The notes: generated by a model not told the origin, from the sequence alone. DNA of 64,000 nucleotides from an uncultured Verrucomicrobiota bacterium (GCA_964398915.1 CAYNOR010000006.1:14068-78067); one strand, 5' to 3'. Positions 1,093 through 62,200 are shown, counted from the stretch's first letter. Made by a program: numbers and translations.

Positions 1093-2403
1093 TTGGGGCA
1101 CGGATTATGTCCAACTTTTAAAACAAAAAAACAAAAATCTGCAAGGAACCCTGTGAAAAATCTGAACGAAAAAATCATCAACCAGCAAACCAGACTGGCC
1201 GTCGAAATTTTAGAAACGCTCACTCCGCATGTGCTGGAAAACCGGCATCCGGCCGATCGCGTCCTGTTGCGCTTCTTCAAAAACCGTCATGAACTGGGTT
1301 CCCGCGACCGCCGTTTCCTCTCCGAATGCTTCTTTTCCTATTTCCGCTGGCTCGGCTGGACCAAAGCCTTGCAGCTTCCGCCGATTGAAGCTGCCGCGTT
1401 GAGCTGGCTGCTTGACCGGACGGATCTGCACGTTGCGTTGCAATCCGCTGCGAAACCGGGCTGGGAGCCGCTTGGCGGTAAAACGCTTGAGGAAAAACGC
1501 GCCGCGCTGGTTGGCTGGTTTCCTAACTTCCAAGGGTTGGGTAAAGCAGACCTTGTGCCTCCAAACCTTGGAAAAAGCGTCGGATTGCCCATCGGGGGTG
1601 AGGATCTTTTTTATGAAACGTTGCAACAGCGTCCGCCGACCTGGTTGCGCCTGCGCAATGACGAGTTTAAGCAGATACTGACCGAAGCAGGCATTGCTTT
1701 TACGGAACATCCGAAACTTTCCGGTGCGATCTCGGTCGAAGCCGGCACATCGCTCGGTAAGCTGGGTCACGGCGGTCAGTATGAGGTGCAGGACATTGCG
1801 TCGCAAGCCGTTGCGCGGATTGCTGCACCGGCATCCGGCTCGGACTGGTGGGATGCTTGCGCGGGTGCGGGCGGGAAAACGGTTCAGTTGGCCGACCTGA
1901 TTGGTCGCGATGGCAAGGTGCTGGCGACCGATTTGAGGACTGAGGCTTTGCATGAGTGTAAAAAACGGGCACATGCCGGCGGGATTTCCAATGTCCGGAT
2001 GCAGCTGCACGATTTAGCCAAAGACAAACCCTTTACCAAGGAGTTCGATGGCGTATTGGTGGATGCGCCCTGTTCGGGCTGGGGTACATGGAGCCGTAAC
2101 CCGGATGCCCGTTGGCGGAGTGATCTGCGTGATCCGGCGCAGAAACGGAATTTACAGGTGAGGATGCTCCATAATGCTGCTCAGTGTGTGAAATCCGGCG
2201 GCGTGCTGGTGTATGCAGTCTGTACGTTTACCCGCGAGGAAACGGTTGAAGTGATCGAACGCTTCCTGCCGGAGCATCCGGGTTTTGTGCTGGATTCATT
2301 TGCCCATCCATTGACGGGCGAACCGGTTAATGGTGCGGTGCAAATCTGGCCGTGGGAGGGCCCCGGCGACGGAATGTTCATCGCGCGTTTACGGAAAAGC
2401 TAA
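1093..2403 (+). CDS. rsmB: NOL1/NOP2/Sun (RsmB-type) rRNA cytosine-C5 methyltransferase
   Basis: Motifs DACAGAGGKT, VLVDAPCSGWGTWSRNPDARW and YAVCTFTREE. The track start is a TTG; an in-frame GTG at 1153 is an alternative and would leave a more plausible divergent promoter gap. Confidence 0.8.
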   Translation: MGHGLCPTFKTKKQKSARNPVKNLNEKIINQQTRLAVEILETLTPHVLENRHPADRVLLRFFKNRHELGSRDRRFLSECFFSYFRWLGWTKALQLPPIEAAALSWLLDRTDLHVALQSAAKPGWEPLGGKTLEEKRAALVGWFPNFQGLGKADLVPPNLGKSVGLPIGGEDLFYETLQQRPPTWLRLRNDEFKQILTEAGIAFTEHPKLSGAISVEAGTSLGKLGHGGQYEVQDIASQAVARIAAPASGSDWWDACAGAGGKTVQLADLIGRDGKVLATDLRTEALHECKKRAHAGGISNVRMQLHDLAKDKPFTKEFDGVLVDAPCSGWGTWSRNPDARWRSDLRDPAQKRNLQVRMLHNAAQCVKSGGVLVYAVCTFTREETVEVIERFLPEHPGFVLDSFAHPLTGEPVNGAVQIWPWEGPGDGMFIARLRKS

Positions 2404-2520
2404 GGATATTGTTCGAAAATTGAGCAACGACCTGATGATACGGCTTGAGAAATAACGGCCTCCTTTTCTCTTGAAACTCTTAGTGCTACCGCCTGATGAA
2501 TACATGGCACTCTTCAATTG

Positions 2521-5004
2521 TTAGCTTAAATCGATTCCGAATGTGATTTCATTTCCGAGACTCCCAGCATACTCAACAATCTTGGGTTTGTTTTTTGTAT
2601 GAACGTTTTCTTCTACAAGTTCATTAGGGAGTTCGTTTAGGAAGTAGCTTTCTATCAGTTGTTCCGTATTTTCATTTGTCTGATTTGTCGGTTCCTGTAT
2701 GGATTCCTGTATCTCAAGGATTCCTTGGCAGGTCGCTTGTTTATTTAGTTTTTTATGAGATTGTGTCGTTGAAGTAATACGGTTTCTTCGTGTGATGATA
2801 AGCTCATCCTTTGCGCGTGTGAGTGCAACGTAAAGAACTCTTCGTTCTTCTTCGATATCGTCCAGATTTCCGATGGAAAATGTCGATGGGTATTGCCCTG
2901 CTGAAACGTTCTGAATGTAACAAACTTCCCGTTCGGTTCCCTTTGCAGAGTGTATTGTGATTATCTGAACCACATCTTCATTTTGTTTTCGGCTAAGCTC
3001 TGAGCTGTACGCTGGGTCGAGTACGTATTCCTCAATGAACTCCAGTATGGATCTGTGTTTTTTTGCCAACTTAGCAACAAAGTCAAAATCACGGCGGCGT
3101 TTTTCCCAGTCTTGATTTTTATATTTTTCACTAAGAATATTATTCATCATCGCAGCCACTGTTTTTATGATCTCTGGGATCTGTCCATCAAGTTTCTGAA
3201 TGGTTTTTATAATTTCAATTAACAATGGAGGGATTTTCTGTTGCATTGCTAGGTGCCGCAGGGTTTCATCCAAATCAGAGTGTTGGAGAATCTCGTTCGC
3301 TATTTTTGCCGCCGTGACTTCGCCTAATCCGTTCCAGAGAATTAAATATCTCATCCATCCAATTTCATCTTGATGGTTTGCCGTAACGCGGAGTGCAGAT
3401 AAGACATCTTTTACATGCGCAGCTTCGAGCAATTTCGTTCCACCAATAAATATGTAAGGAATCTCTTTGGCAAGAAGGGCCGCCTCGACAGTTCTGGCAA
3501 TAAAAGAGGATCGGACAAGGATCATGTGTCTTGACCATGTGCTGCCATCCGCTTTTCTTTTTTCTAGGTCTTCAGCAATCCATCTTCCCTCCTCCCATTC
3601 ACATGAAAAAGTGTGAATTTTTGGGATGACACCATCTCCTCTTATTGCGCGCAGCCGCTTGCCATAAGGAACTTCACTTCTTGATAAAAGCCAGTTAGAG
3701 ATGTTGAGGATCTCTTGTGTTGACCGGTAGTTATCTTCAAGTTTTAAAACCAGCGCACCCGGAACGCGCTCCTTAAAGCTATGTACATTTCTAAAATCCG
3801 CGCCTCTAAATCCGTAAATAGATTGTGCGTCGTCGCCCACACAAAATAACTTTGCAAAGTTTGTCAGCGGCTGAAGGAGTTCCCATTGGATGGGATTGGT
3901 ATCCTGCATCTCATCAACCAATATGTGATCGTATTGTGAACCTATCCATGCGCAGACATCTGGATATTGGGCGATTCCCCGAGCGACAATGTCTAGGATG
4001 TCGTCGTAGTCAAAATAGTTTCGCGCCCGTTTCCGTTCCTCATAGTGTTTCATGACCGTCGCTATGTGTTCTTTTTGCGGATGGAAATTAGGAAATTTTT
4101 TTAAGAGAGCTTTATCAAGGGAACTCCGAGTGTTTCTGGCGTAAGAGTACAAATCACAAAGTTCAGCAGCTGTTAGAAATTGTGCCTTAGCTTTTTTGCC
4201 GCGGAGTATTCTGAATAATTGCAATTGGTCGTCACGATCGATGATCGTGAAGCTTTTAAAGCCAAAGGCGATCGGGTTACGATGAAGAAGAGATGTGCAC
4301 CATGTATGAAAGGTTGAAGCCCTCAATCCTTTACTGCTATCTCCAATAGTTAATCGAACCCGTTCAACAATTTCTGAAGCTGATCGACGAGTAAAGGTGA
4401 GTATTTGAATTCTTTCCGGACGAGTGCCGCTGGAGATCAAATACGCGGCTCGGGCGATGATCGTTTTTGTTTTCCCGCACCCGGCGCCTGCTAAGACAAG
4501 TGTATGTGTAGCGGGGGCGGTTGCGGCGTGTCGCTGGCTGTCATTCAACTCCCTTAACAGAGAGTCTACTGTATTCGCTTGCCCCGACCCGCTTTTCATG
4601 AATTCGCCGCAAGGGGTAAGATTCTTGGCTACAGTAAGTATTTGCTCGGAACAGATAGGTTGGGGGCGAGTTTGTCCGGGTGTTTCCGCTGGGATAAAGG
4701 GGAGAATCTCCGGAGTTTCTTGATGAATATCTTTTGTGGTTGCTATGCGTTCTGATTCTTTGGGCACATCAAAAGATGGTGGTGCCGGCATTTCTTTTGG
4801 TATCGGCTCTTTGCAGGTTGAACAACGCCATCGGGGTGCATCCGGGTTATAGTCGCTGGGATTATACTTTGCCCCGCAACCATTACATATGCACTCTATC
4901 GGCGTTTTAGTTTCCATATTCAGATTTCTGTTGTTTCGGGGGGCGTCTGAAAAGCGCCGTATCACTGACACAGTCTCACTTTTTACTCTTCCGCCAAGAC
5001 TCAT
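2521..5004 (-). CDS. UvrD/Rep/PcrA-family superfamily-1 helicase with N-terminal zinc ribbon and C-terminal extension
   Basis: Walker A LVLAGAGCGKTKT, then ILVDEMQDTN, GDDAQSIYGFRGA, EDNYRST, TIHSAKGTE and VLYVALTRAK. The N-terminus has CxxC...CxxC (CICNGCG...RCSTCK). An alternative ATG start lies at 4917. Confidence 0.85.
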   Translation of the reverse strand: MSLGGRVKSETVSVIRRFSDAPRNNRNLNMETKTPIECICNGCGAKYNPSDYNPDAPRWRCSTCKEPIPKEMPAPPSFDVPKESERIATTKDIHQETPEILPFIPAETPGQTRPQPICSEQILTVAKNLTPCGEFMKSGSGQANTVDSLLRELNDSQRHAATAPATHTLVLAGAGCGKTKTIIARAAYLISSGTRPERIQILTFTRRSASEIVERVRLTIGDSSKGLRASTFHTWCTSLLHRNPIAFGFKSFTIIDRDDQLQLFRILRGKKAKAQFLTAAELCDLYSYARNTRSSLDKALLKKFPNFHPQKEHIATVMKHYEERKRARNYFDYDDILDIVARGIAQYPDVCAWIGSQYDHILVDEMQDTNPIQWELLQPLTNFAKLFCVGDDAQSIYGFRGADFRNVHSFKERVPGALVLKLEDNYRSTQEILNISNWLLSRSEVPYGKRLRAIRGDGVIPKIHTFSCEWEEGRWIAEDLEKRKADGSTWSRHMILVRSSFIARTVEAALLAKEIPYIFIGGTKLLEAAHVKDVLSALRVTANHQDEIGWMRYLILWNGLGEVTAAKIANEILQHSDLDETLRHLAMQQKIPPLLIEIIKTIQKLDGQIPEIIKTVAAMMNNILSEKYKNQDWEKRRRDFDFVAKLAKKHRSILEFIEEYVLDPAYSSELSRKQNEDVVQIITIHSAKGTEREVCYIQNVSAGQYPSTFSIGNLDDIEEERRVLYVALTRAKDELIITRRNRITSTTQSHKKLNKQATCQGILEIQESIQEPTNQTNENTEQLIESYFLNELPNELVEENVHTKNKPKIVEYAGSLGNEITFGIDLS

Positions 5005-5015
5005 TCACCTTACGT

Positions 5016-6287
5016 CTATTCTTTTAGAAGCCTAACCCACGGAACAGTTTTTGAGGCTCCACTCACCGTAGTATAATTTTTTGAGCCAAGCAAAACGATG
5101 AACCCTTTTATCGCTTGCCCATCGACCATTTGGTCTGATGTTTCGTGGTCGACCATTAGAATAGAGCTTTCAGCAATTCGCATGCTTTTTGTCCCGAAAT
5201 TAAAATCACCTACAGCATGTATCAGAAGCACCTTTTTGTCGCATTGCAAAACCTCCCAAGATACGCGACCCACATCCAGTTCAAAAAATTCACCGATTTG
5301 GCTATCGATTGATTTCCCATCTACTATTACCGAAGATAGAAAGGCAAATGCGGTTCTGCCCTTAAAACAGTAGGAAGAGTTGAAGCCCTTTGCCCAGCTG
5401 TCAATTCTAACAATTCTGTCCGCTTGTGCGTTCTTTCGGGCCTCCTCAGCAGCCAGAGCTACCTCAGTCTGTCTCTTTATTACAGCCTGTTCCTTTTCTT
5501 TTTCTTCAAGCCGCAGCTGTTCCCACTGCGCTTCTTTCGCTTTCCGTTCGTCATCTTTAATTTTTTGATCTTTAATTCGCGCGGCCTCTTCGTCTTTTCG
5601 TTTAATTTCCCACGCTTTTTCCCGCGCATCCTCTTCGTCTTTTTTTCTAATTTCCCATGCTTTTGCTCGCGCCTTTTCTTCTTGTAGTAGTTTAATTTCC
5701 CATGCTCTCCCCATCGCTTTTTGGGGGTCAAATCCCTGTTCCTTCTTAACCAGCGGATTGAGGATTCCAGCGCGCTTTTTGAAGAAAGTCAGGTCTTCTT
5801 TGAAGTGGCGGGGGCCAATAGCCAGTTCGATGAACGCATCATCTCCGACCATGTATAGGCTAAGTAGTTTACCATCCCGATTATCTCCATTTGGAGGATT
5901 AGATGAACAATCTTTCGCGAAGCAATACTCTGTGCGGCCTTGAATCAGGTCGTTCAGCGCGCCTCCGCCGGACGGATCTCCAAATCGAAGGATTTTGATG
6001 TCAGGGGCAAACGCTAATGTCTGCGCAATGCTGGTAAATTTTTCGATAGCTTTGTCTGGGGGGCAGACCCATACCGCCCCGTATAAATCTGTGTCAGCTT
6101 CAAAATATTTCGAGTAGTTGGTGGAGGCAGATTCCCAGCCTGACGCGCCAGCGATTGCTTCCGGTTTGAGCCGATTTTTGTTTTGTTGGTCGTAGAGGAT
6201 GTCGTCTTCATAACTTTTGGTTACCTCTAGCAGCGTGCATCCGTTCAGTAAAAACACCCCGGCAATAATGATTAAAAACCGTCGCAT
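5016..6287 (-). CDS. lipoprotein with a central charged coiled-coil carrying AWEI repeats, function unknown
   Basis: Signal peptide plus lipobox MRRFLIIIAGVFLLNGC. The central region reads GRAWEIKLLQEEKARAKAWEIRKKDEEDAREKAWEIKRKDEE. It lies 11 nt upstream of the helicase ORF on the same strand. Confidence 0.6.
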   Translation of the reverse strand: MRRFLIIIAGVFLLNGCTLLEVTKSYEDDILYDQQNKNRLKPEAIAGASGWESASTNYSKYFEADTDLYGAVWVCPPDKAIEKFTSIAQTLAFAPDIKILRFGDPSGGGALNDLIQGRTEYCFAKDCSSNPPNGDNRDGKLLSLYMVGDDAFIELAIGPRHFKEDLTFFKKRAGILNPLVKKEQGFDPQKAMGRAWEIKLLQEEKARAKAWEIRKKDEEDAREKAWEIKRKDEEAARIKDQKIKDDERKAKEAQWEQLRLEEKEKEQAVIKRQTEVALAAEEARKNAQADRIVRIDSWAKGFNSSYCFKGRTAFAFLSSVIVDGKSIDSQIGEFFELDVGRVSWEVLQCDKKVLLIHAVGDFNFGTKSMRIAESSILMVDHETSDQMVDGQAIKGFIVLLGSKNYTTVSGASKTVPWVRLLKE

Positions 6288-6443
6288 TATAGTTCCTTTC
6301 GTTCGTGGACTAAGCATATTGGCTGTTTCTGAGCAGGGCTACTTCCTCATAACCTAAAATTTAAATGCCTGAGTGGGAAGCTAGACCTTACCGGCGGGCG
6401 ATAAAAGTGGAAAGAGCAGTTTATTGTATAACCTTAGAATTCG

Positions 6444-6467
6444 GCATATTTATTGAAAAGCTAAGGA
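6444..6467 (+). pseudogene. short remnant of the rsmB 3' end
   Basis: GAAAAGCTAAGGA at 6455-6467 is identical to 2394-2406, which spans the rsmB stop codon. The upstream positions partly match (..AYLLKS* versus ..ARLRKS*). Confidence 0.4.
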
Positions 6468-6493
6468 GTTGGCTTTCCCGTTGACCATCGGGA

Positions 6494-6526
6494 GGGGCAC
6501 GGCTATGCTGTGCCCCTGTTTTTTGT
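6494..6526 (+). terminator. rho-independent terminator with no adjacent plus-strand gene upstream
   Basis: GGGGCAC-ggctatgct-GTGCCCC followed by TGTTTTTTG. It sits about 30 nt after the rsmB-end remnant stop and just upstream of the ppiD-like gene. Confidence 0.6.
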
Positions 6527-6547
6527 TGTAAAACCAAGGGGTCTATT

Positions 6548-36571: not shown

Positions 36572-36700
36572 TGAGTCTGTGCGCCGAGCGGCGTTTTCTT
36601 ATTAAAAACCCTATCCAAAAGCGGGATGGACGGCTATTTTCCGGATGTGGAAAAGTTAGACAGACTTTATAACCAAAAGTATCAACAGGAGACATCAGTC

Positions 36701-40782: not shown

Positions 40783-40821
40783 GTCGAATAGGGCTTATTT
40801 GATCTATTGAAAGAAGTTCGC

Positions 40822-41842: not shown

Positions 41843-41908
41843 AGGTTATCGGAGAAGTTATTTGTCTGCTATGAAACACGCCGAAAACACAGAACCAAAA
41901 ATTAATAC

Positions 41909-42169: not shown

Positions 42170-42198
42170 TCTTGTTTCAAAACCGGTGCAGATTAGGA

Positions 42199-42822: not shown

Positions 42823-43005
42823 AAACGCCCCTCTTTTCTGTTTGCGCAGACGGTAATCACATCTTTTCATCCGGTCAAGTTCAGATCGAGTCAGCACGCA
42901 TGTTCGTCAATAATCACTCTGGTATTTAAGAGTTTACATCCGTTATGTCGGCTGTTATAGCGACGTGGTCTATTGAGCCAAACCTTTGTTTGAAAGGGCT
43001 GCTTT

Positions 43006-44031: not shown

Positions 44032-44052
44032 AATCGTGGCGGGGGATATCAC

Positions 44053-45272: not shown

Positions 45273-45315
45273 CAATTTTTCTTAATAGTTGACGGAATTC
45301 CTGTAGTTTCCCCGA

Positions 45316-47079: not shown

Positions 47080-47178
47080 CCGGTTGTTCCATCAGGATGG
47101 TCGTTGTTAGCGTTGTTTTGACAGTCGTTCGCGCGGCGTTTAGCATGCTGGCATTTCATGCTAAAGGATTGGAGATTT

Positions 47179-47847: not shown

Positions 47848-47880
47848 CCTTTGGTTCAGCCAAAAACAACGACTTCCCGC

Positions 47881-48864: not shown

Positions 48865-48890
48865 TTGCAGCCATGAAGGCGGCCCGGGTG

Positions 48891-49074
48891 CAAGGTGACG
48901 CCGCCGGTCTCCTGCGGGTTGCTTGCGGGAACGTTCCGCGACGAACTGCTCGAAAAGGGCGAGATTGAGGAGCGGGCTGTCTCACTTAGTGACCTGAAAC
49001 GGGCAAAAGCTGTCTGGCTGATAAATTCTGTTCGCAAATGGCGGAGGGTTTCTGTTAACTGGACGGCCTTATGA
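48891..49074 (+). pseudogene. remnant of the pabBC 3' end, with its stop overlapping the purQ ATG
   Basis: 85 of 88 nt are identical to 46908-46995, followed by a diverged tail encoding ...AVSLSDLKRAKAVWLINSVRKWRRVSVNWTAL*. Its TGA (49072-49074) overlaps the purQ ATG (49071-49073). Confidence 0.85.
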
Positions 49075-51199: not shown

Positions 51200-51290
51200 T
51201 GAGGCGTGCAGGGCCGTTCCTAAGTTGACTCCGGCCCTTTTTTCCTTATATTCGGGGCTCATTTTTTAACCTTTGGAAAGGAATGTTGCT

Positions 51291-52547
51291 ATGAAGAAAA
51301 TGACGATTCGTGATGTGGATGTGAAAGGTCACCGGATTTTGATGCGTGTGGATTTCAATGTGCCGGTTAAAGAAGGTAAAGTGGGCGATGTAACCCGTAT
51401 TACTGCCGCTATTCCGACGATCAAGTATGTGCTCGAAAAGGGCGGTTCGCTCGTGCTGATGAGCCATCTCGGACGTCCGAAAGGTAAAGGTTACGAAGCG
51501 GAATTCAGTCTTAAGCCGGTTGCCGCCAAGCTGGAAGAGCTGCTGGGCAAGCCGGTTCAATTCGGAACCGATTGTGTTGGTGCTGAAACCATAGCTCAGG
51601 CCAAGGCACTCAAGGCCGGCGAAATCATGGTGGTCGAGAACACCCGTTTCTATAAGGAAGAAGAAGGCAAAGCCAAGCTGGCTGACGATGCTACCGACGA
51701 GCAGAAGAAAGCCGCCAAGGCTGAAATGAAGGCCAAGCAGAAAGAACTCGCCAAGAAGCTGGCCGAACTCGGCGATGGCGAAATCTTCTGCAACGACGCC
51801 TTCGGTTCCGCTCACCGCGCCCATGCTTCCACCGCGATTGTCTGTCAGTTTTACAAAAAGAACGTCGCCGGCTTCCTGATGGAGAAGGAAATTGATTACC
51901 TCGGCAAGGCGCTCGAAGCTCCGGAAAAACCGTTTGTCGCCATTATCGGCGGCGCGAAAATTTCCGGCAAGATCGACGTGGTTACCAGTCTGATGGATAA
52001 GTGCGACGCCATTCTGATCGGCGGCGGCATGGCGTATACCTTCTACAAGGCGCAGGGCTTTAAGGTTGGCAATTCGCTGGTTGAAGATGATCGCGTTGAA
52101 ATGGCGAAAGACATTCTGGCCAAGGCCAAAGCCAAAGGCGTCAAACTGATGCTTCCTGTCGATAATATTGCCGCTGACAAATTTGATATTGCGGCGAACA
52201 CCAAAGTGGTTGGCGAAAACATCGAAGACGGCTGGATGGCTCTTGATGTCGGCCCGAAAACAATAGCCCTTTACTGTGCGGAAGTCGCCAAAGCCAAAAC
52301 GGTGGTCTGGAACGGCCCGATGGGATGCTTCGAAATGGCTCCGTTTGCCAAAGGCACTTTCGCGGTCTGTCAGGCGGTAGCCGATTCCGACAGCGTCAGC
52401 ATTATCGGCGGCGGCGACAGCGTGAGCGCAGTCAACAAGAGCGGTCTGGCCGACAAGATGACCCACATCAGCACCGGCGGCGGAGCCAGCCTTGAGTTTC
52501 TCGAAGGCAAGCAACTTCCCGGCGTTACCGCGCTGACAGATAAGTAA
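51291..52547 (+). CDS. pgk: phosphoglycerate kinase
   Basis: MSHLGRPKG and [15 protein letters not shown]. Confidence 0.9.
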
Positions 52548-52572
52548 CTTTAAAATCAGACTGGAAAATCTT

Positions 52573-53328
52573 ATGAGAAAAAAAATTATTGCGGGCAACT
52601 GGAAGATGAATAAGACCGTTGCCGATGCGGTGACGCTGGCCAAGGGTATTCACGCTGAACTGGCTGGATGTACAGAAGTTGAAGTAGTGGTCTGTCCGCC
52701 GTTCACGGCGCTTAAATCCGTCAGCGACGTGCTGACTGACAGCCAGATCAAGCTGGGCTGTCAGAATATGAGCTCGGAAGACGACGGAGCGTACACCGGC
52801 GAAATTTCCCACGCCATGCTCAAAGAGCTTTTCGTCAAGTATGTCATTCTCGGCCACAGCGAGCGCCGTGATTATTACAAAGAAACCGACTTCTGGGTGA
52901 ACAAGAAGGTCAAAAAAGCGCTCGAAAAAAATATGCGTCCGATCGTTTGTGTCGGAGAAAAGCTGGCTGACCGCGAAGCCGGGAACACCGAGAAAGTTGT
53001 TGAGGCGCAGGTTCGCGGCAGTCTGGCCGATATTACCGCTGAACAGTTTGAGAATGTTGTGGTGGCGTATGAGCCGGTCTGGGCGATCGGCACCGGTAAA
53101 ACGGCAACCAGCGAACAGGCACAGCAGGTGCATGCCTTTATCCGTGGCATCATCCGCGACATGGTTGGCGAAAAGGCGGCCAAAGGTCTGCGTATTCAGT
53201 ACGGCGGAAGCATGAAGGCTTCGAATGCCAAGGAACTGCTTTCGCAGCCGGACATTGACGGCGGTTTGATCGGCGGCGCGGCGCTTGAGGCTCGTTCCTT
53301 CATCGATATCGTCAAAGCAGGAATGTAA
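52573..53328 (+). CDS. tpiA: triosephosphate isomerase
   Basis: AGNWKMN, LGHSERR and YEPVWAIGTGKTAT. Confidence 0.9.
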   Translation: MRKKIIAGNWKMNKTVADAVTLAKGIHAELAGCTEVEVVVCPPFTALKSVSDVLTDSQIKLGCQNMSSEDDGAYTGEISHAMLKELFVKYVILGHSERRDYYKETDFWVNKKVKKALEKNMRPIVCVGEKLADREAGNTEKVVEAQVRGSLADITAEQFENVVVAYEPVWAIGTGKTATSEQAQQVHAFIRGIIRDMVGEKAAKGLRIQYGGSMKASNAKELLSQPDIDGGLIGGAALEARSFIDIVKAGM

Positions 53329-53438
53329 GAGAAGAAGGTATTGGTCTTTAGGTTGTGGACTTTGGGGACATGAATTTGTGTTGGCAGAGTTCTTCCTAAA
53401 GCCTAAAGTCCAAAGCCTAATGTCTTAGGAGAAAATTT

Positions 53439-53783
53439 ATGGCTGTTATTCGTACATTGCTCATTATTCTGGAAGCCGCGTGCAGTTTGGCGCTGATCGG
53501 TTTGATTCTGCTGCAAAAATCTAAAAACGAAGGCCTCGGCCTGGCGTTCGGTTCCGGCGGCGGCGATTCACTTTTCGGCGCGCGGGCCGGTAACGTGCTG
53601 ACTAAAGCGACGGTTGTGATCGGTGGTGTCTTTTTATTGAACACGCTGATTCTCGGTATGCTTTTTGCCGGCAGTGCCAGCGAGTCGCTTATGGATAATG
53701 CCAAGGTTGAACAACCCGTTCCGATGGAACAGACTGCAATGCCTCAGGCTCCGGTGCAAATGCCGGTCAGTCCTGCGGAGTAA
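53439..53783 (+). CDS. secG: preprotein translocase subunit SecG
   Basis: LILLQKSKNEGLGLAFGSGGGDSLFGARAG, in the conserved pgk-tpiA-secG order. Confidence 0.85.
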   Translation: MAVIRTLLIILEAACSLALIGLILLQKSKNEGLGLAFGSGGGDSLFGARAGNVLTKATVVIGGVFLLNTLILGMLFAGSASESLMDNAKVEQPVPMEQTAMPQAPVQMPVSPAE

Positions 53784-53837
53784 CGGAGGCTTTCCTCCCA
53801 TATCGAACAAGGAACTCCGAATAATGAAGTAAGAGTT

Positions 53838-55658
53838 ATGCGCAAATTCACTTCGTTATTCATTATTCCCTGTTCGATATTTTTTTGTTTGCTTATTACT
53901 GCCTGCGGGCGGCGTGAGCTGGATACATTACGTTTCGAAGGCGAGCAGGTTCTTTACGGTCAGACTTCACGCATCAAGGGGCTTGATCCGGCCCGGGCTG
54001 GCGACGTGGCATCTTCCGCGATCATCGGCCGCATTTATGAAGGTCTGCTTGAATACGCGTATCTCGACCGTCCCTATCATCTTCAGCCTATGCTGGCCTC
54101 CGCCATGCCGGATATTTCCGCCGATGGGCGCATCTATACCTTTCATATCCGCAAGGGCATCTTTTTTCAGGATGACCCCTGTTTTCCCGGCGGGAAAGGG
54201 CGCGAGCTGACGGCGGAGGATTTTGTTTATTCAATTAAACGCATTGCCGATTTGAAAAATGCCTCTTCCGGTTATTGGGCCTTCAACGGGCGCATTGTCG
54301 GTCTCGATGAATTCCGGGCTGCGTCGGCGGGCGGGACCCCGACTGCGTATGATGCGCCGGTTGAGGGTTTGTCCGCGCCCGATCGATATACCTTTCAGAT
54401 TAAGCTCAAAGAATCTTATCCGCAGCTTCTCTGGGTGCTGGCCATGCATTATGCCTTTGCCGTGCCGCGTGAAGCGGTGGAGTTTTATGGCGCCGGGTTT
54501 GTTAATCATCCCGTTGGCACCGGACCGTATATTCTCGAAAAATGGAAACACAACTATCGTATCGAATTCGTCCGCAATCCTAAGTGGGCTGAAACCGGCC
54601 GGATCGAAACGTATCCTTCGACCGGAACCGAATCGGCCCGTTCAGCCGGACTGCTCGACGACGCGGGCAGGCAGCTTCCGTTTGTTGACCGCATTGTGCA
54701 GTATGTCGTAGATGATGCGGCGACTTCATGGATGATGTTTCTTGCCGGCCAGTTCAGCTACAGCAGTATTTCGCGCGACAACTGGGATGCTGTTATTAAG
54801 CCCGACAGCGGTCTGGTTGAAGAGCTTAAGAACCAGGGCGTTGAGTTGCTTTCCAGTCCGACTCTCAATCTTTATTACATCGGCTTCAATCTGGACGATC
54901 CGGTCGTCGGCAAAAATAAAAAACTGCGTCAGGCGCTCAGCTGTGCGTTCGAGCCTGCTCTGCTGGTTCAGTATTACAATGGACGCGTCACGCCCATTTA
55001 CGGTCCGCTTCCCGACCCGCTGGCCGGCTTTAAGCCGAACCCGACGACGTATTCGTATAACCTTGAGAAAGCGAAACAGCTTCTGGCCGAAGCTGGCTAT
55101 CCGGAAGGCATTGATCCGGCAACCGGCCGGCGGCTGGAACTGACGCTTGAACTGGGCGGTGCAACCCCCGATGTCCGGCAGGTCGTTGACCTGATGGCCG
55201 GTATGTTTGACAAAGTCGGCGTGGTGCTCAAAGCCAGCTACAACAACTGGCCCGCCTTCCTCGACAAAATGGATCGCCGTCAGGCGCAGCTTTTTGAGCT
55301 CGGCTGGGTTGCCGACTATCCGGATGCCGAAAATTTCCTGCAGCTGTTCTACAGTGCCAACGCCTCGCCGGGGCCCAACCACGCCAATTATGCCAATTTG
55401 CAATTTGACAGGCTCTACGAGCAAATGCGCATCATGCTTCCCGGTCCGGAAAAAGACCGTCTTTGCGAACAGATGGCCGATCTGGTCATTGAAGACTGCC
55501 CGTGGATTTTTATGTACCAGCCGATGGATTTTGCTGTTATTCACGACTGGCTGAAGAATTACAGCCTCCACGATTTTCCATACACCATGGTTAAATACCG
55601 CCGTGTTGATAATGCGGTTTGGGGTGAATGGAAAGAGAAGCGAGGGAGAAACAACTGA
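53838..55658 (+). CDS. ABC transporter substrate-binding protein, family 5 (peptide/nickel type)
   Basis: Lipoprotein-like start ...LLITACG, with SBP_bac_5-like length and sequence (WVADYPDAENFL). Confidence 0.75.
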   Translation: MRKFTSLFIIPCSIFFCLLITACGRRELDTLRFEGEQVLYGQTSRIKGLDPARAGDVASSAIIGRIYEGLLEYAYLDRPYHLQPMLASAMPDISADGRIYTFHIRKGIFFQDDPCFPGGKGRELTAEDFVYSIKRIADLKNASSGYWAFNGRIVGLDEFRAASAGGTPTAYDAPVEGLSAPDRYTFQIKLKESYPQLLWVLAMHYAFAVPREAVEFYGAGFVNHPVGTGPYILEKWKHNYRIEFVRNPKWAETGRIETYPSTGTESARSAGLLDDAGRQLPFVDRIVQYVVDDAATSWMMFLAGQFSYSSISRDNWDAVIKPDSGLVEELKNQGVELLSSPTLNLYYIGFNLDDPVVGKNKKLRQALSCAFEPALLVQYYNGRVTPIYGPLPDPLAGFKPNPTTYSYNLEKAKQLLAEAGYPEGIDPATGRRLELTLELGGATPDVRQVVDLMAGMFDKVGVVLKASYNNWPAFLDKMDRRQAQLFELGWVADYPDAENFLQLFYSANASPGPNHANYANLQFDRLYEQMRIMLPGPEKDRLCEQMADLVIEDCPWIFMYQPMDFAVIHDWLKNYSLHDFPYTMVKYRRVDNAVWGEWKEKRGRNN

Positions 55659-56899
55659 TGCTTCGTTACATCACCAAACGAATATTGCAAATGATCCCGA
55701 CGGTGTTCGGGGTCATCCTGATCACGTTCATCCTGTTCAATATCGTTGGCGGCAGTCCGGCTCAGCAGGTGCTCGGTCCGCATGCACAGGCCGATACGCT
55801 CGAAGCATTTGATGAGCAGCGCGGTTTCAATAAACCTCTTTTCTTTGGGACGAAAACGAAAACCCGCGCGTTTACCGACCCGGACTTTGAACGATCTGCC
55901 GGCGACTGGAAGGGGATGCGCGGCGTTTCCTGGACGAACGGTGTCATGGTTTTCGCCGCTGAGGGTGAGTACGCTGTTCCGCTCAAATTTGCCCTGCGTA
56001 CAGACTGTAAATATGAACTGGAAACAGAGACATTCGTTTCCAACTCTTGGAAAATCACCCGTGAAGTTTTCCAAGGTTCGGAAAAACCGGCCATCCGGAC
56101 GGGCGTCCGGCCCTTGGAAATCCGCTCCATCAAATTGCGGCGGGTAATGAATAGTCCGTTTGACTCGCAGTTTATGTTTTATCTCAACCGGCTGGCTCAC
56201 CTCGATTTCGGTGTCTCGCATAGCACGAATCAGCGGGTTTCAAAACTCCTCCTCGACGGTATCGGCCCGTCGCTGATGCTCACCGCGCCGATTTTCTTTG
56301 TTGGACTGATTACCTCCGTCATGCTGTCGCTCTTCTGTGCTTTCTGGCGCGACACCTGGGTAGACCGCTTTTTCGTGGTTTTCTCTGTCGCACTGATGAG
56401 CGTGAATTATCTCGTCTGGATTGTCGGCGGACAGTATCTGCTCGGTTTTAAACTAGGCTGGTTCCCGGTCTGGGGGTTTGAAGATCCTCGCTACCTGATT
56501 CTGCCGGTGCTGATCGGCGTATTCAGCGGACTCGGCGCTGAACTGCGTTTTTATCGCACCATCATGCTCGACGAAGCGCACCGTGACTATGTCCGCACCG
56601 CGCAGGCCAAAGGCGTCAGCCGCGGCGGGGTGCTGTTCAAACACGTTTTGAAAAACGCGATGATTCCCATCATCACCAACACCGTCATCGCAATTCCTTT
56701 TCTTTATACCGGTAGCCTGCTGCTTGAGAGCTTCTTCGGTATTCCCGGCCTCGGCTACCTCGGCATCAACGCCATCAACTCGTCCGACGTGGATGTCGTG
56801 CGCGCCATCGTGCTGGTCGGCTCCATCATGTTTGTTATCGCCAATCTCCTGACCGACCTCTGCTACGCGCTGGTTGATCCGCGGGTGAAGCTTAAATAA
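55658..56899 (+). CDS. ABC transporter permease (DppB/OppB type) with a long periplasmic insert after TM1
   Basis: MLRYITKRILQMIPTVFGVILITF start, with an EAA-like region YVRTAQAKGVSRGGVLFKHVLKNA. A TGATG overlap links it to the binding-protein gene. Confidence 0.8.
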   Translation: MLRYITKRILQMIPTVFGVILITFILFNIVGGSPAQQVLGPHAQADTLEAFDEQRGFNKPLFFGTKTKTRAFTDPDFERSAGDWKGMRGVSWTNGVMVFAAEGEYAVPLKFALRTDCKYELETETFVSNSWKITREVFQGSEKPAIRTGVRPLEIRSIKLRRVMNSPFDSQFMFYLNRLAHLDFGVSHSTNQRVSKLLLDGIGPSLMLTAPIFFVGLITSVMLSLFCAFWRDTWVDRFFVVFSVALMSVNYLVWIVGGQYLLGFKLGWFPVWGFEDPRYLILPVLIGVFSGLGAELRFYRTIMLDEAHRDYVRTAQAKGVSRGGVLFKHVLKNAMIPIITNTVIAIPFLYTGSLLLESFFGIPGLGYLGINAINSSDVDVVRAIVLVGSIMFVIANLLTDLCYALVDPRVKLK

Positions 56900-57046
56900 G
56901 GCTTTACGTGGATGATGCTACTTTAAGGGTCAAAGCGAAACCGAAGGACGCATTAAAGTGATGAAAAAAAGCGTTCGGACTCTTTTGATATGAGATTGTG
57001 CGTGACAGCGATAACGAGTGGGGCAGTTTGGTGCTCTCTGTCTAAT

Positions 57047-57078
57047 AAAAAACCCCGCTCGTTGAGCAGGGTTTTTTA
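57047..57078. terminator. bidirectional terminator-like hairpin between convergent genes
   Basis: AAAAAACCCCGCTC-gtt-GAGCAGGGTTTTTT, with one mismatch in the stem. Confidence 0.55.
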
Positions 57079-57098
57079 GAATCGGACAACACTGGTAT

Positions 57099-57470
57099 TT
57101 ATTTTGCAGACTGCCAGACGTAATCGGGATTCATCAGGCTGTCATAGCCGAGTTCTTCATTCAGCGGCAACGGGAATGTGACGATTTCAACCACGCCGGC
57201 ACCGGTACGGACGATAGTCATGAAGACGCCGTTGAGAATTCCGGTGGGAACGCCGACGAGACCATCTTCCTGAGTCATGACGATCGGTTGACGGAAGAGT
57301 TCGCCCCAGCCGGTGAGTGTATTCACAATACCACGCCAGAGTTTTACGCTCACTGGTTTCACGGAGTATTCAGGATCACCCATTTTTGTCTGTTCGGCAA
57401 AAGAGACCTGAGTCAGAAGAACTGTCAGAAGAAAAAGACCTGTAACGACCATCTTGCGAGAACGAATCAT
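57099..57470 (-). CDS. small secreted protein resembling the exosortase-associated TIGR04073 family
   Basis: Signal peptide MIRSRKMVVTGLFLLTVLLTQVSFA, and RGIVNTLTGWGELFRQP. The family assignment is from memory. Confidence 0.45.
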   Translation of the reverse strand: MIRSRKMVVTGLFLLTVLLTQVSFAEQTKMGDPEYSVKPVSVKLWRGIVNTLTGWGELFRQPIVMTQEDGLVGVPTGILNGVFMTIVRTGAGVVEIVTFPLPLNEELGYDSLMNPDYVWQSAK

Positions 57471-57650
57471 ACCCAACTCCTTATGTTTAAGTTCCATCTG
57501 CGGCAACACTTGCGTCCACTTGATGTGGGGAATGTCTTAACAAACAGAACTGAACGGATCAAGAGAAATTCAGTTTTGTGTCGTATTGGGTGAATTTCTC
57601 ATTAAAACCCCTATCCAAAGTCAGGGCGGACGGCTATTTTCAGACCTGCG

Positions 57651-57869
57651 ATGGTGATTTGTACGCTGGCAGAGTTGATGGGAGGGTACAAAGATGAAAC
57701 TGACCCGATTGTAGAAGAGGTGCGGAACGCGCGCCGGAAACTGGCTGAAAAATTCCAGTTTGATATCAAAAAAATATTTGAAGATGCAAAAACAGAACTG
57801 GAAACCGGCGGCAGAGCCGCCTCGTCTTTCAGACCGCCGCCCAATAGACTTTGGACTCATCAAATATGA
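57651..57869 (+). CDS. hypothetical small protein
   Basis: 72-aa ORF; the start is uncertain and I recognised no motif. Confidence 0.3.
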   Translation: MVICTLAELMGGYKDETDPIVEEVRNARRKLAEKFQFDIKKIFEDAKTELETGGRAASSFRPPPNRLWTHQI

Positions 57870-57936
57870 AACCGTGGGTTAAAGAGCTTCGTGTATTGGC
57901 GCACTCCCCGTATCGTTTCTCCGCTGGAGGTAGAAG

Positions 57937-58182
57937 ATGAAGAAGGTTGAAAAATCAGGAATCCCCGCCGCTTTGCGTGAAGTCTGGGCCTGGAAAGAGG
58001 CGGTCTATCGCGAAACAGAAAAACTGAGTACAGCGGAAGCGCTGGAGCGGATTCATGCGGATGCCGCAGTGATACGTCAACGGTTCGGACTCTCCGTTGC
58101 CGAGCCGCAGTTCGCCGCCGGACTGGTTTGCGAAGAACCGGCGGAATACAAAACGAAGAAAACGGGGAACGAAAAGCCATAG
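57937..58182 (+). CDS. hypothetical small protein
   Basis: 81-aa ORF MKKVEKSGIPAALREVWAWKEAVYRE... Confidence 0.35.
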   Translation: MKKVEKSGIPAALREVWAWKEAVYRETEKLSTAEALERIHADAAVIRQRFGLSVAEPQFAAGLVCEEPAEYKTKKTGNEKP

Positions 58183-58526
58183 ACTTTCAGACCTTCGACC
58201 TTTAGACTTTCGACTCATTAACAAAGGAACCAGAAACTGATAACTCATAACTAAATTTTAAATGCGTTAACGCGCAGTGTTGCTTCTTCTGAAAACCGCC
58301 AAATTTAAAGTTTGGAAGCGAGACACGCGGAGACGCGTCCCATGTGGGCGCGGCTCCCTGTCTTGTGTTTCCAAACAGGGGCTTGGCGGTCCCTCGAACG
58401 GGGCATGAGCTTGGAGTTCGCGCCCCTTTTTTGTTTCCAATCCTTGGAAACAACCTCGGCATAGTCCTGTAAGGACGAAGCTGGGTTAAGTTGGCGGCTC
58501 CTTGTCTGCACAAGGAAGCACGCCTC

Positions 58527-59069
58527 ATGGGAATTTGGAAAACAGCTCTTTTGCTGACCGCCGCACTGGTTATCGTTCTGCTGGTCAGCCGCAGCATCCG
58601 CAAAACGGTTTGCGTAGCCGCCGGATACGGCATCTACGCGCTCTTCGGAGAACTGTACGACAAAATCCTTTGGCCAATTGTGCAGGGACGTTACGGCCTG
58701 ACGGGAGCAGTGGCGATGTCCGCCGGAGCGCTGGTCATCAACTTCTCCCTGTTGATTATTTATCAGAAGTGTGGCGTTGATTGGCTGGGCGTCTCTCTGC
58801 TCGATGATTTGCAAAAACGTACCAGTCAAGTTCGGGCATCTCTGAAACACGGCACCGCGAGAAGCTTTCTTCTCCGTCCCCCTGTGATGGTGATGCAGGC
58901 GGCCATGTGGATGCTCCAGACGCCATGGTCGGCCTTTATCCTGCTCACGGTCTGGGAGGATTCTTTTGTACCACCGCCTTTCTTCGTCAGGGCCGGTTCG
59001 GCCCGCTCGAACGCCGGGATATCCGCAGGCGGTAAAACCGTTTGCAGAGGCGGCGTTACGGACAGCTGA
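58527..59069 (+). CDS. membrane protein, function unknown
   Basis: MGIWKTALLLTAALVIVLLV plus further hydrophobic segments. The track ORF begins earlier, at 58491. Confidence 0.45.
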   Translation: MGIWKTALLLTAALVIVLLVSRSIRKTVCVAAGYGIYALFGELYDKILWPIVQGRYGLTGAVAMSAGALVINFSLLIIYQKCGVDWLGVSLLDDLQKRTSQVRASLKHGTARSFLLRPPVMVMQAAMWMLQTPWSAFILLTVWEDSFVPPPFFVRAGSARSNAGISAGGKTVCRGGVTDS

Positions 59070-59096
59070 AGAACGCAGTTTGAAATGAGGGATGTC

Positions 59097-59144
59097 CTTA
59101 AGGTGAATTCAGCAGTTCCTTCGGATCGATAGCATCGGTACGGC
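59097..59144 (-). pseudogene. remnant of the AddB-like gene 3' end
   Basis: Translates CRTDAIDPKELLNSP*, compared with CRTTAIDPKELLKS* at the end of the intact gene (59250-59294). Confidence 0.7.
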
Positions 59145-59249
59145 ATCCAAATCGCAAAATTAACCTTTTCTGCCTTTTGACCTCTCGGAGCTACTCTGAC
59201 TTTCTCTGGCGAAGCGGGTGGTAGAATATCTTTTTTGTGTTTTTCGTGG

Positions 59250-62200
59250 CTATGACTTGAGCAGTTCTTTTGGATCGATGGCGGTGGTGCGGCAGATGTG
59301 GGAATAGTCGTCGTACCCGGCGATGAGCGGTTCGGTGGCGAGGTCGCCGGCACGCAGTTTCCGGACATTGGAAAAGAGTGTTTTGAGGAACGCTTCCGTC
59401 AGCTCCGGATTCATTGAAAGCCGTTTCTTTGTGAAGTGTTTGGTCATTTCGTTCAGGTCGCGTTCCTGCAGGTGATAGACGGCCTGTGTTTTTTCGTTCA
59501 GTTCCGGCGTGTTGTGCGCGCCAAAAAACTTTTGCTGCGCCGCAAAGGTGTAGAGCGGAAGCTGGCAGTCGAGATTGAGCGCGATTTTCTTTTCGAGGTT
59601 GTCCAGCGAGTCCTTGCGCGACTTGCTCTTGTAGTCCACCACCAGCAACCGTTCCAGTTCGCCATTGGAGTCGAAGATCAGATCAATGCGGTCGATTTTA
59701 CCTTTCAGCCGGACTTCTTCATCGCCGCGCTTTAGCGTCACCGGCAAATCGTGTTTGGCGTCGAACTTCAGTTCGAACAGTGCCGGATAACGATTTTCAG
59801 CATGCGCCGTTTCGATATCCATGCGGACAAAGTTTTCGATCATCTGCCGCAGCTTGCGTTTTTCGGTTTCCCATATCGCGGGGTGGCCGAGGTGACGGCT
59901 GGGCCGCCGCTCCGCTTTTTTGAATTCTTCTTCCGCAATGCTGCGTGCCAGCGCCAGCAGTTCGCCGGACTTCGACGGATCAAAAACCGCCAGCGGGATA
60001 GAATCTGCTCCGGACTTTTGGCTGATCTTCCAACGTAGATGCGACGCCCTCGTCGCATTTTCATCCTGTGAGGAACGCGACGAGGGCGTCGCGTCTACGT
60101 TAATTCTTGTCGCGTACCGACCGCTTTGTCTGGCGATGGCGGTATAAACCTGTTCGAGAATGTCGTGAATGACGTTGCCGCGGTCTGCCGGGTCGGTGCC
60201 GTCTTCGTGTGTGCGGTCGGGCCGGATGCTCAGTACCTTTTCGAGGAAGAAAACAAACCGGTTGCGGGCCAGCGATTCCAGTGCCGTTGCGCTGAACTCC
60301 GGATGGTCTTTGAGCCATTTCTGGATCGTAGACGCGACGCCCTCGTCGCGTTCAGATTTTCCAATGTTTGGAAAACGCGACGAGGGCGTCGCGTCTACGT
60401 TAAAAGCCAGCTTCGCCCGTGTCTGCCGGACTTCATCCTCGGCGCGGCAGAGTTCCGGCGGCAGAATCGTGTGAAACGATGCGCCGAGTACCGGTTTTTC
60501 GATTCCGGTCAGGCTGCGCATCCGTTCAAAAAATTCACCCGGCGCGCGCTCTTTGCCGTCGGCACCGGTGCGGGTATAGGAAAGCGTCAGCCGTTCACGC
60601 GCCGCGCTCATGGCGGTGAGAAAAAGAATTTCTTCCTGAATCAGCGCGGCTCCGGTTTCCGAAAGCGCCAGCCGCGGGCAGGGAATTTTCCGTTCGTCCA
60701 GAAATGCCCGTAGCGCTTTGCGCTCGTTCCCGTTCAGCAGAGAATCAACTTTTGGAATCTGAGGGAAAGTACGGTCATCCATTCCGGCAATATAAACCGA
60801 TTCGAAGCGCAGCCCCGCCGTGTCCATCGGATTGACAATCCAGACGCCGCTTTCTGTTCCGGCGTCATCTTTGAGTGTGACGTTATCGAGCAGTTCCTCA
60901 AACAGCGGAATCATTTGCCCGATCGGGAGCGCCGGGATAGCGGGTGTGTTCAGTTCTTCAATTAAAACCAGAACCTCATCAGGCAATTTCAGGCTGTGTT
61001 GCTGAATCAGAACCGTGACTTGTTCTGAGAAACGTAGACGCGACGCCCCCGTCGCGTTTCTTTGCACACGGGCCGCGACGGGGGCGTCGCGTCTACACTC
61101 AAAGAAGCTTTCCAGTTCCTTCGGCAGGCGGCGCAGGCGCGGAGGTTCTTTGTGGCGGATTTCCTGAATCAGTGCCGCGGGGTCTTCAATACCGGGCCAC
61201 TGGATGCCGGGCATTAACAGCAGGTCGCAAAGCCGGTCGCGCGAAAGCGTTTGGGGAAATGCGAGTAAAGCCATCAAGGCTTTAACCGGCGGATGAGCGG
61301 CGGCGGGCGTACCGCGCCGGAAATGGTACGGGATGCTGAAGCGCGCAAAGACGTCGGGGATAATGTCAGTGTACGGGCTCAGGTCGCGCAGGATCAGCGC
61401 GATTTCGTCGGGCGGAGTTCCGGCCTCGATCTCATGGGCGATGCGCCGCGCGGCATCTTCGATTTCGCCGTACGGGTGGGCGGAAACAAAAAACGAAACC
61501 CGTTCCCGCGATTCCGATTCGAGGATATTGCTGTCGTCAGCTTCGATGGCATCGGCGAAATCCTCCAACCACGGTTTCCATTCTTCTTCGGATCCTCGCA
61601 TCAGCTCGCTGCGTACGACGGCGCAGAGCCGGTCTTCAGCCGCTTCGGCGTGGGCACCCGGCAGAACGGAATAGATTTTCACGCGATCCGTCCCTAGCCG
61701 TTTTTTGAGCGCGGCTACGAAACGCTCTTCGAACGGGTTGAACCAGCGGACGGCACGGAAGTGGATTTTTCCAGCCAGTTCGCGGGGCAGTTTGCCGGAT
61801 TCAATCAGACGGAGCAGGGCGGTGTTGACAGCGAAGCGGTCGGCGATGTCCATTTTTGTACACCATGCGCGCCATGCTTTGAGAAGCTGGCCGATACCGT
61901 GCAGTTTATGGTTCGGCTCATGCGCCAGCAGCCATTCAGTAATGCCGGATTCGTTTTCGGCAAAAACGGCGAAGGTTTCAATCGTCTGCCGGAGCAGTCC
62001 AGCTCGCGCGGCAGACGAAAGGCTGGCGAGCGGCTGGCCGGATGCAAAAGAAACGTTTCTAGCGGCTTCTTCGAGAAGCAGGCGGATTTCGGTTGGGCCG
62101 GGCACGCGGCCCTTGAGCAGTCCTGTGCGCCGGGCGGCCCGTTCGCAAAGGATAAGGAGCTTTTTCTGGGTTAAAAGGCGGGATGTATCGACAACCCCGT

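Follow-up and report, generated by a model that had tools for sequence, protein, structure and literature searches.

Insertion with long target duplication is a form of DNA gain described for restriction-modification (RM) genes in Helicobacter, Haemophilus, Neisseria, and other bacteria (Nobusato et al. 2000; Furuta et al. 2010; PMC2853133). The direct repeats that enclose such inserts are 30-420 bp long and often span the start or stop of a flanking gene, no mobility genes accompany them, and the mechanism is unestablished (PMC2853133). Here, we describe a related pattern in a 64,000-nucleotide stretch of DNA from an uncultured Verrucomicrobiota bacterium (GCA_964398915.1 CAYNOR010000006.1:14068-78067), referred to below as the window, in which segments of accessory genes lie between the intact end of a core gene and a diverged, truncated copy of the same end. 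The genes concerned are rsmB, tex, purL, pabBC, and an addB-like gene. By its purL, the window belongs to the uncultured freshwater Pontiellaceae (Kiritimatiellales), and the closest metagenome-assembled genomes (MAGs) are 87-91% identical to it in purL nucleotide sequence. The pattern is a variant of insertion with long target duplication, with which it shares three defining features and fails the fourth, namely that the repeats copy the target; an initial annotation of the window had considered something without precedent, which does not stand because this class of insertion has already been described for RM genes (PMC2853133). With a probability of roughly 0.55, we read these structures as scars of small accessory cassettes (defence-like, toxin-antitoxin-like, lipoprotein, and four-helix-bundle genes) gained at tightly packed core-gene boundaries by homology-anchored, partly illegitimate recombination with DNA of related lineages, and filtered by selection.

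Gene-End Repeats in the Window

The window was checked by sensitive self-BLAST and by local alignment with shuffle controls. The repeat architecture is confirmed as real and recurrent, with self-comparison exceeding background in four of the five pairs that the initial annotation had listed; the tex 5' end and the purL, pabBC, and addB-like 3' ends are repeated beyond chance at the DNA or protein level. In self-BLAST, the pabBC pair (46902-47059 and 48885-49042) is 82% identical over 158 bp (E 1e-35) and the tex pair (32976-33104 and 34937-35065) 85% identical over 107 bp (E 4e-24). In local alignment, the purL pair (40750-40785 and 41800-41835) scores 18 against a shuffle maximum of 13.5, and the addB-like pair (59253-59294 and 59104-59145) scores 24 against a shuffle maximum of 13. 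A blind scan at the protein level, in which the terminal 30 amino acids of 44 larger genes were compared with their surroundings (±7 kb), returned exactly four pairs: the tex N-terminus (2e-8) and the C-termini of purL (4.5e-6), pabBC (2.4e-10), and addB (2e-5). The fifth pair, at rsmB (2388-2406 and 6449-6467, 13-19 nt), scores 15, which equals the shuffle maximum, and is not significant alone; it was accepted because a relative with a 97%-identical RsmB has the same 83-nt spacing from the rsmB stop to a SurA-like gene. Direct repeats in the window thus range from 13 to 190 nt, and those of tex (129 bp), pabBC (158-190 bp), purL (63 bp), and addB (42-48 bp) exceed 30 bp while that of rsmB (13-19 bp) falls short. 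The features of the five cases are as follows, the near copy being the end of the live gene.

2388-2406, plus strand: live rsmB 3' end, near copy of case 1, stop TAA at 2401-2403
2407-6448, minus strand: cargo 1, a GajB/UvrD-like helicase (2521-5004) and a 433-amino-acid protein of unassigned function (5016-6317), GC 0.447
6449-6467, plus strand: rsmB 3' remnant, stop TAA at 6462-6464, then a conserved terminator/promoter block (6481-6527) and a SurA-like gene at 6548
32976-33104, minus strand: live tex 5' end and leader, near copy of case 2, ATG at 33035-33033
33105-34936, plus strand: cargo 2, a Sel1/Lcl_C protein (33489-34343), a 127-amino-acid open reading frame (ORF; 34367-34750), and a half-decayed palindromic element (34869-34936), GC 0.485
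34937-35065, minus strand: tex remnant, the first approximately 16 codons and the leader
40720-40782, plus strand: live purL 3' end of foreign (L073) type, near copy of case 3, tail NTAISDLVKPFKKTLYGI and stop
40783-41766, plus strand: cargo 3, a four-helix-bundle/23S_rRNA_IVP gene (40807-41382), a 75-amino-acid ORF (41379-41606), and a 78-amino-acid ORF (41606-41842)
41767-41832, plus strand: purL remnant of native type, tail KIDTDLDSLRKPFKKTLYGI and stop
46902-47079, plus strand: live pabBC 3' end, near copy of case 4, first 93 nt 97% identical to the remnant, tail about 65% and unlike relatives
47080-48884, plus strand: cargo 4, a 229-amino-acid protein (47158-47847) and an FGE-sulfatase-domain lipoprotein (47851-48864), GC 0.498
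48885-49074, plus strand: pabBC remnant, stop TGA at 49072-49074 overlapping the purQ ATG at 49071, contains CTGATAAATTCTGTTCGCAAATGGCGG
59250-59294, minus strand: live addB-like 3' end of native type, near copy of case 5, matches L087 and L004
59146-59249, minus strand: spacer of 104 nt from the addB stop to the remnant
59098-59145, minus strand: xenologous addB tail remnant, tail CRTDAIDPKELLNSP and stop, at the edge of a non-syntenic block

An assembly or binning artefact, in which strain or species variants of one locus were stitched in series, would be favoured by the metagenomic origin of the window, which forms part of a 108.9-kb contig (JGI 3300020048, Ga0207193_1000198), by the evident co-occurrence of several related lineages in samples of this kind, and by one Logan contig (L083) that breaks inside the pabBC remnant. 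Such an artefact is very unlikely because the junctions recur across assemblies and analogous structures are present in MAGs of other studies. Three long-contig assemblies of the same organism and a shorter assembly reproduce the junctions of cases 3-5, which are identical in the long contigs of JGI, ENA, and NCBI (108.9-125 kb) and in an ENA MEGAHIT contig. The cargo-to-remnant joints have just 4-6 nt in common with the live copy, much less than the k-mer of any assembler, and the same architecture is found in unrelated MAGs of other studies (L005, L007/L085, and L087).

Displaced Native Ends and Empty Sites in Relatives

At the empty sites of relatives, each repeat matches one copy (loci L087, L002, L007, L001, L004, L016, L084, and L086, and the P0001 contig), and a search for such sites in related MAGs gave precise ones for cases 1-4. 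Judged from these sites, the far copy in cases 1-4 is the displaced native end, still joined to the signals of the neighbouring gene. The far copies had been proposed to be displaced ancestral ends in all five cases; the empty sites uphold this for four and the proposal fails for addB, where the remnant is foreign.

The live rsmB tail, FIARLRKS and stop, matches 40 or more relatives, and cargo 1 is absent from the P0001 contig, the relative with the 97%-identical RsmB. In that contig, a 550-amino-acid SurA-like gene starts 83 nt past the rsmB stop, the same spacing that separates the remnant stop from the SurA-like ATG (6548) in the window. A terminator-like hairpin (6493-6517) follows the remnant and none was found after the live rsmB stop, in agreement with an orphan terminator reported earlier for the remnant. 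The interval from the remnant stop to the SurA-like gene, with its terminator-like hairpin and promoter-like site, is conserved in L165.

Cargo 2 is missing in L002, L007, and L087, and the tex remnant is continuous with the native upstream region common to these three loci, which represent empty tex-leader sites. In L087, the genes tex, purL, pabBC, purQ, and ilvC are tightly packed, and the tex leader runs directly into the sequence found past the tex remnant of the window. No foreign tract was found inside tex beside the junction, where identity to L087 is 92-98%. Five of the six changes in the coding part of the remnant are GC-to-AT. At this junction, the cargo terminates in a half copy of a palindromic element (34869-34936); the decayed half palindrome lies exactly at the tex remnant.

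Cargo 4 is missing in L007, L016, L084, L086, and L087, where the pabBC stop overlaps the purQ ATG at an empty site. The overlap of the remnant stop with the purQ ATG (TGA 49072-49074 and ATG 49071), pointed out in the initial annotation, is borne out. A 27-nt block, CTGATAAATTCTGTTCGCAAATGGCGG (49009-49035), which precedes the purQ ATG by approximately 35 nt, does not vary among nine relatives with pabBC genes of only 72-77% identity, and it is altered in the live pabBC tail; the block probably acts as a signal for purQ expression that lies within the preceding gene. The remnant-type tail, RKWRKVS(L/V)NW(A/S)AL and stop, is common among relatives, the live tail differs from it, and the switch inside the live gene lies near 47000. 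A near-identical PabBC with the remnant-type tail, which would be the allele before insertion, was not found, the closest other protein being 82% identical. That pabBC as a whole is a foreign gene (74-77% identical to relatives) was considered and rejected; it was judged to be fast-evolving because every pair of relatives is equally diverged.

At the purL site, the relatives L001, L004, L020, L084, and L087 are empty, and there the stop of purL and the start of pabBC overlap. Identity between the purL remnant and the native purL tails of L001, L002, L003, L007, and L020 is 80-91%. A further 3.5 kb (41833-45315) lies between the purL remnant and pabBC, two genes that overlap in close relatives; it encodes a histidine phosphatase, a phosphoribosyltransferase, and two unknown proteins, along with a HEAT-repeat ORF. 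We saw no remnant of the pabBC 5' end around this insert, and the first approximately 8 codons of pabBC in the window are unlike those of relatives.

Origin of the Second Gene Ends

The live purL tail is 88.6% identical to that of L073 and matches L073 only; no similarity to L001, L002, L007, or L020 was detectable. L073 carries the same four-helix-bundle gene directly after its purL. The two protein tails in the window (live RINTAISDLVKPFKKTLYGI and remnant KIDTDLDSLRKPFKKTLYGI, each followed by the stop) are 65% identical in amino acids. The last 11 codons differ only synonymously, as had been stated for nearly the whole of the repeat; this did not extend to the nine codons upstream of KPFKKTLYGI, in which the amino acids differ too. 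Counted by codon position (first/second/third), the differences between copies are 7/5/17 for purL, 8/3/14 for the pabBC tail, 1/1/7 for addB, and 1/3/5 for tex. Because the differences fall mostly on third positions and the live purL tail fits the lineage that carries the four-helix-bundle gene, the second ends are taken to be xenologous rather than decayed duplicates, with both copies apparently having evolved as coding sequence in separate lineages. This is what the initial annotation had suggested for purL, and the third-position bias and the L073-type live tail support it. Its view that the incoming DNA supplied a replacement end is likewise borne out, since purL, pabBC, rsmB, and tex are all kept intact through ends that are contiguous with the cargo.

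The boundaries in purL are narrow. In the live gene, native sequence gives way to foreign sequence at approximately 40722-40730, beside a shared GTCAAAGGCGCG block, and this switch and the start of the remnant coincide within approximately 12 nt, therefore indicating a clean insertion of about 1046 bp. In L092, the small gene of cargo 3 is complete (67 amino acids), with its stop overlapping the pabBC start; in the window, the corresponding 78-amino-acid ORF has lost the last approximately 12 native codons at the junction and continues through the purL remnant in a different frame. Microhomology of the ATYRAYAC/CGCG type is all that is shared at the purL joint. From these features, the joint of the case-3 cargo looks like the end of a random fragment that was joined illegitimately, and not like a defined cassette boundary. 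The purL gene (37780-40782) is also mosaic in structure. Over one stretch of 120 nt, its identity is 96-98% to L002/L087 and 74-81% to L001/L007 (74-76% to L001), and elsewhere the relation is reversed and it is closest to L001. Homologous recombination between lineages is regarded as active and frequent because purL is a mosaic among them. In L073 (about 1661-1690), L014, and L016, the sequence that separates the four-helix-bundle gene from the purL stop includes a 12-nt perfect palindrome, GTCCTATAGGAC, which is degenerate in the window (40783-40806).

The addB-like gene shows the opposite polarity. Compared with relatives, its near copy (protein tail CRTTAIDPKELLKS and stop) is native in type and its remnant (CRTDAIDPKELLNSP and stop) foreign. 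The foreign tail marks the right edge of a block of 51.2-59.1 kb (51200-59100) between ilvC and the addB-like gene, which contains pgk-tpi-secG-oppA-oppB and small ORFs and is not syntenic with relatives; at the same position, L087 has pnp and L004 has only 2.7 kb.

These comparisons bear on a second account, that insertion produced a true long target duplication whose copies then diverged, or one of which was later replaced by the allele of another lineage. The duplication could have come from staggered breaks about 20-190 nt apart that were filled in, or from a Campbell-type single crossover of a circularised cassette with a gene-end copy. Decay in place cannot yield the live tails of purL and pabBC, which are 65-70% identical to the remnants with third-position bias and which, in purL, fit another lineage. 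Given its minimal homology requirements, RecA would not be expected to replace a copy by recombining within 60 nt of 70% identity, and the reversed polarity of addB adds to the difficulty. Repeats near-identical to each other are confined to the first 93 nt of pabBC and a pair in L007, and do not include purL, the pabBC tail, or addB. These two blocks, the first 97% identical, have lineage-specific states in common within each pair, as a duplication would predict. The tex pair could be a reciprocal chimera, or else a native segment that was duplicated and then decayed from GC to AT, and the cargoes of two relatives are MNT-HEPN pairs, which are addiction modules like RM systems. Precedent exists in the long-target-duplication scheme put forward for RM genes viewed as selfish (PMC2853133). 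On balance, we hold long duplication to be a somewhat unlikely origin of these repeats.

Mobility Genes, Junctions, and Cargo

No integrase, transposase, or other recombinase was found by Pfam and NCBIfam searches of about 60 ORFs of the window or in the cargoes of relatives, confirming for the window what had been noted at the outset. The 64-kb window contains no tRNA genes and no Rfam family, no shared motif was found across seven junction pairs, and the cargo ends carry no inverted termini; the features of DDE/IS-type transposons are absent, as there is no transposase and the repeat length is variable. No competence genes were found among the window genes, nor any uptake repeats of DUS/USS type (Neisseria- and Pasteurellaceae-type) in the window. 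The cargo segments have a GC content of 0.41-0.51, against 0.55-0.59 for the core genes, and the defence-like genes among cargo and inserts comprise PDC-S13, DUF4238, and the GajB-like helicase.

The initial annotation had compared the pattern with islands that integrate site-specifically at gene ends. In an explicit form of this idea, an unlinked site-specific recombinase of the tyrosine or serine type, for which gene ends are the attachment sites, would act in trans on islets that lack an integrase, and these islets would resemble cis-mobilizable elements (CIMEs), dusA- or guaA-type islands, or degenerate tycheposons. An element that brings a replacement end and leaves the native end beyond it resembles attL/attR of gene-end islands, the near and far crossover points in purL agree within about 12 nt, and the same boundaries are used repeatedly by different cargo. 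Set against these likenesses, the target gene ends number at least eight, share no core or junction motif, and include no tRNA or tmRNA, and the repeat length varies from 13 to 190 nt. No such recombinase is encoded in the 64 kb or in the cargoes of the window and its relatives, and the cargo gene cut short by approximately 12 codons at its junction leaves the cassette end undefined. The analogy is thus weak, and we regard mobilisation in trans as quite improbable.

Related Lineages: Same Boundaries, Other Cargo

The boundaries occupied in the window hold other contents in relatives. Between pabBC and purQ lie an MNT-HEPN pair (L020), an iron alcohol dehydrogenase (Fe-ADH, L003), a Zur-ZnuABC operon (L162), or nothing, and between rsmB and the SurA-like gene an aldolase (L165 and L166) or nothing. 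Further scars were found in three close relatives: the purL 5' end is duplicated around a PEP-CTERM protein in L005, the pabBC 5' end around an MNT-HEPN pair in L007/L085, and the pnp 3' end with its terminator around an MNT-HEPN pair in L087. In L007, the two copies of the pabBC 5' end (4232-4325 and 5061-5153) differ by one mismatch over 70 nt and have lineage-specific states in common. A second pair in L005 (5043-5187 and 6904-7047) was not counted, as it probably represents tandem paralogues sharing a signal peptide. MNT + HEPN toxin-antitoxin pairs occur at three core-gene boundaries (L020 10814-11822, L007 4323-5052, and L087 14623-15487), two of which are bracketed by gene-end repeats.

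Altogether, 166 kb of close-relative loci contain three gene-end duplications and the 64-kb window four to five. The peptide scan also covered 1.63 Mb of more distant loci, all drawn from those few neighbourhoods, and gave no convincing gene-end duplication and two ambiguous hits. A gene-end homing cassette that is special to this Pontiellaceae clade and independent of recombinases, or alternatively an unlinked, unrecognised enzyme that targets gene termini, appears unlikely to us. An enrichment that reflects a distinct mechanism in this clade would be of higher interest. In the first form, the conserved gene end may serve as a portable homology arm, and a circle excised between the repeats may re-enter other genomes at the corresponding gene end; the breaks might be promoted by palindromic elements that form hairpins.

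Proposed Mechanism

Homology-driven exchange between lineages fits best among the three candidates raised initially, the others being an unlinked recombinase and something new. In the sequence of events that we propose for homology-anchored, partly illegitimate recombination, a donor fragment with cargo beside the same core gene would pair with the recipient through that gene, which acts as a homologous anchor. The unpartnered end of the fragment would be joined illegitimately at a microhomology of a few bases, within the last or first 20-190 nt of the recipient gene. The donor gene end would then complete the gene, and the end of the recipient would be left beyond the cargo as a truncated remnant. 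Such recipient ends would be interleaved with the signals of the neighbour (overlapping stop and start, promoter, or terminator), and a product would survive only if the gene and these signals were both retained; on this proposal, that is why end-duplicating products are the ones observed. No dedicated recombinase would be involved. Once formed, the two repeats could act as homology arms, allowing the cassette to spread by ordinary homologous recombination or to be precisely lost. In the reversed addB case, the donor fragment would have ended within its own addB tail. The order of events and the route of uptake are part of this proposal, and strand exchange may have followed either a linear one-sided recombination or the single crossover of a circle.

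This mechanism would explain why the near ends are foreign and the far ends native, why one cargo gene is truncated, why recombinases and shared motifs are lacking, why addB is reversed, and why scar-free inserts are present at the same sites. Several points weigh against it. The first 93 nt of the pabBC pair (97%) and the L007 pabBC 5' pair both look, from the states of their sequences, like a true duplication of recipient sequence or a later gene conversion. Such near-identical duplicated blocks are left unexplained and would require a second recipient copy (sister chromosome), a circular intermediate with a single crossover, or gene conversion. The GC-to-AT bias of the tex remnant is as compatible with a native segment that was duplicated and decayed in place as it is with xenology. 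No donor of the FGE cassette was found in a search of 5.8 billion proteins, which returned only the same organism (100%) and distant paralogues (at most 45%). Finally, the loci used to compare gene ends were all drawn from purL, purQ, and rsmB neighbourhoods and do not form a random genome sample.

The structures described here illustrate that a compact genome with overlapping genes can gain accessory and defence genes without mobile-element enzymes and with its core operons unbroken; the incoming DNA carries a spare gene end, and the old end stays with the control signals of the neighbour. Displaced ends are also practical markers with which gene transfers in MAGs can be dated and oriented and which show the type of the donor lineage.

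Other Features of the Window

A Bro-N/PDC-S13 gene (36412-37639; PADLOC E 4e-113) is inserted relative to L002, L007, and L087, which have 50-130 bp at this position, and its neighbour is a DUF4238 gene (35229-36173) with a GC content of 0.41. The tex-purL stretch is thus a small islet of defence genes, and no gene-end repeats flank it. A direct repeat of 47 bp (85% identical) connects 36595-36641, just upstream of the PDC-S13 start, with 57595-57641 among the small ORFs downstream of oppB.

The window also contains a family of near-perfect palindromes of approximately 70 bp with the arm GTAGACGCGACGCCCTCGTCGCG, which form DNA hairpins of -34 to -43 kcal/mol (z -8 to -13). Copies lie inside ORFs without breaking the frame, in pabBC (46099-46170) and in the addB-like gene (60031-60101, 60327-60401, and 61031-61097), and others occur in L087 (17258-17328 and 17554-17626), L093 (8927-8997), and L004. 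One copy carries compensatory changes in both arms. The family resembles the Rickettsia palindromic elements, which insert in frame into genes.

Comparison with Known Systems

The likeness to gene-end islands, CIMEs, and tycheposon remnants (bioRxiv 10.1101/2020.12.28.424599) is one of outcome only, in that a replacement end is provided and the native end is displaced to the far side. Successive insertions at one site that push older ones inwards are counted as a further likeness. The window differs in having no recombinase, tRNA target, or conserved core, and in its imprecise cargo ends and many unrelated targets.

Minimal mobile elements of Neisseria, reportedly described by Saunders and Snyder in 2002, are similar in that alternative small cassettes occupy one slot between conserved genes and are exchanged by homologous recombination without mobility genes. 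However, double crossover in both flanks leaves no duplicated gene ends, and uptake sequences are lacking here. A minimal mobile element was the first guess for the window and was dropped because Neisseria- and Pasteurellaceae-type uptake sequences are absent.

Homology-facilitated illegitimate recombination is said to have been observed during natural transformation of Acinetobacter baylyi and Streptococcus pneumoniae by de Vries and Wackernagel in 2002 and by Prudhomme et al. in 2002. As in that process, one junction lies in a homologous anchor (here inside purL and pabBC) and the other at a microhomology of a few bases (here in case 3), 0.1-4 kb of foreign DNA is trapped by the anchor, and a cargo gene can be cut. 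The laboratory events differ in having reportedly been insertion-deletions that retain no remnant of the anchor end. The literature was searched for duplications arising in this type of recombination, with no useful result, and we know of no case in which near-identical duplicated blocks, such as the first 93 nt of pabBC or the L007 pair, are its outcome. The events in the window would thus work like homology-facilitated illegitimate recombination, with assignment to the class itself depending on the donors and on knowledge of DNA uptake.

Insertion with long target duplication shares with the window the lack of a transposase or integrase and direct repeats that correspond to single-copy sequence at the related empty site. 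There, the cargo consists of RM genes and the repeats are near-identical, whereas here the cargo is varied and contains no RM genes, at least three pairs include one diverged foreign gene end, and one repeat is only 13-19 nt long. If true, a homing cassette or an unrecognised terminus-targeting enzyme would provide a mechanism for the 25-year-old puzzle of long target duplication. Given the density of scars in the window and its close relatives compared with the 1.63 Mb of distant loci, this clade is therefore a good one in which to solve that mechanism.

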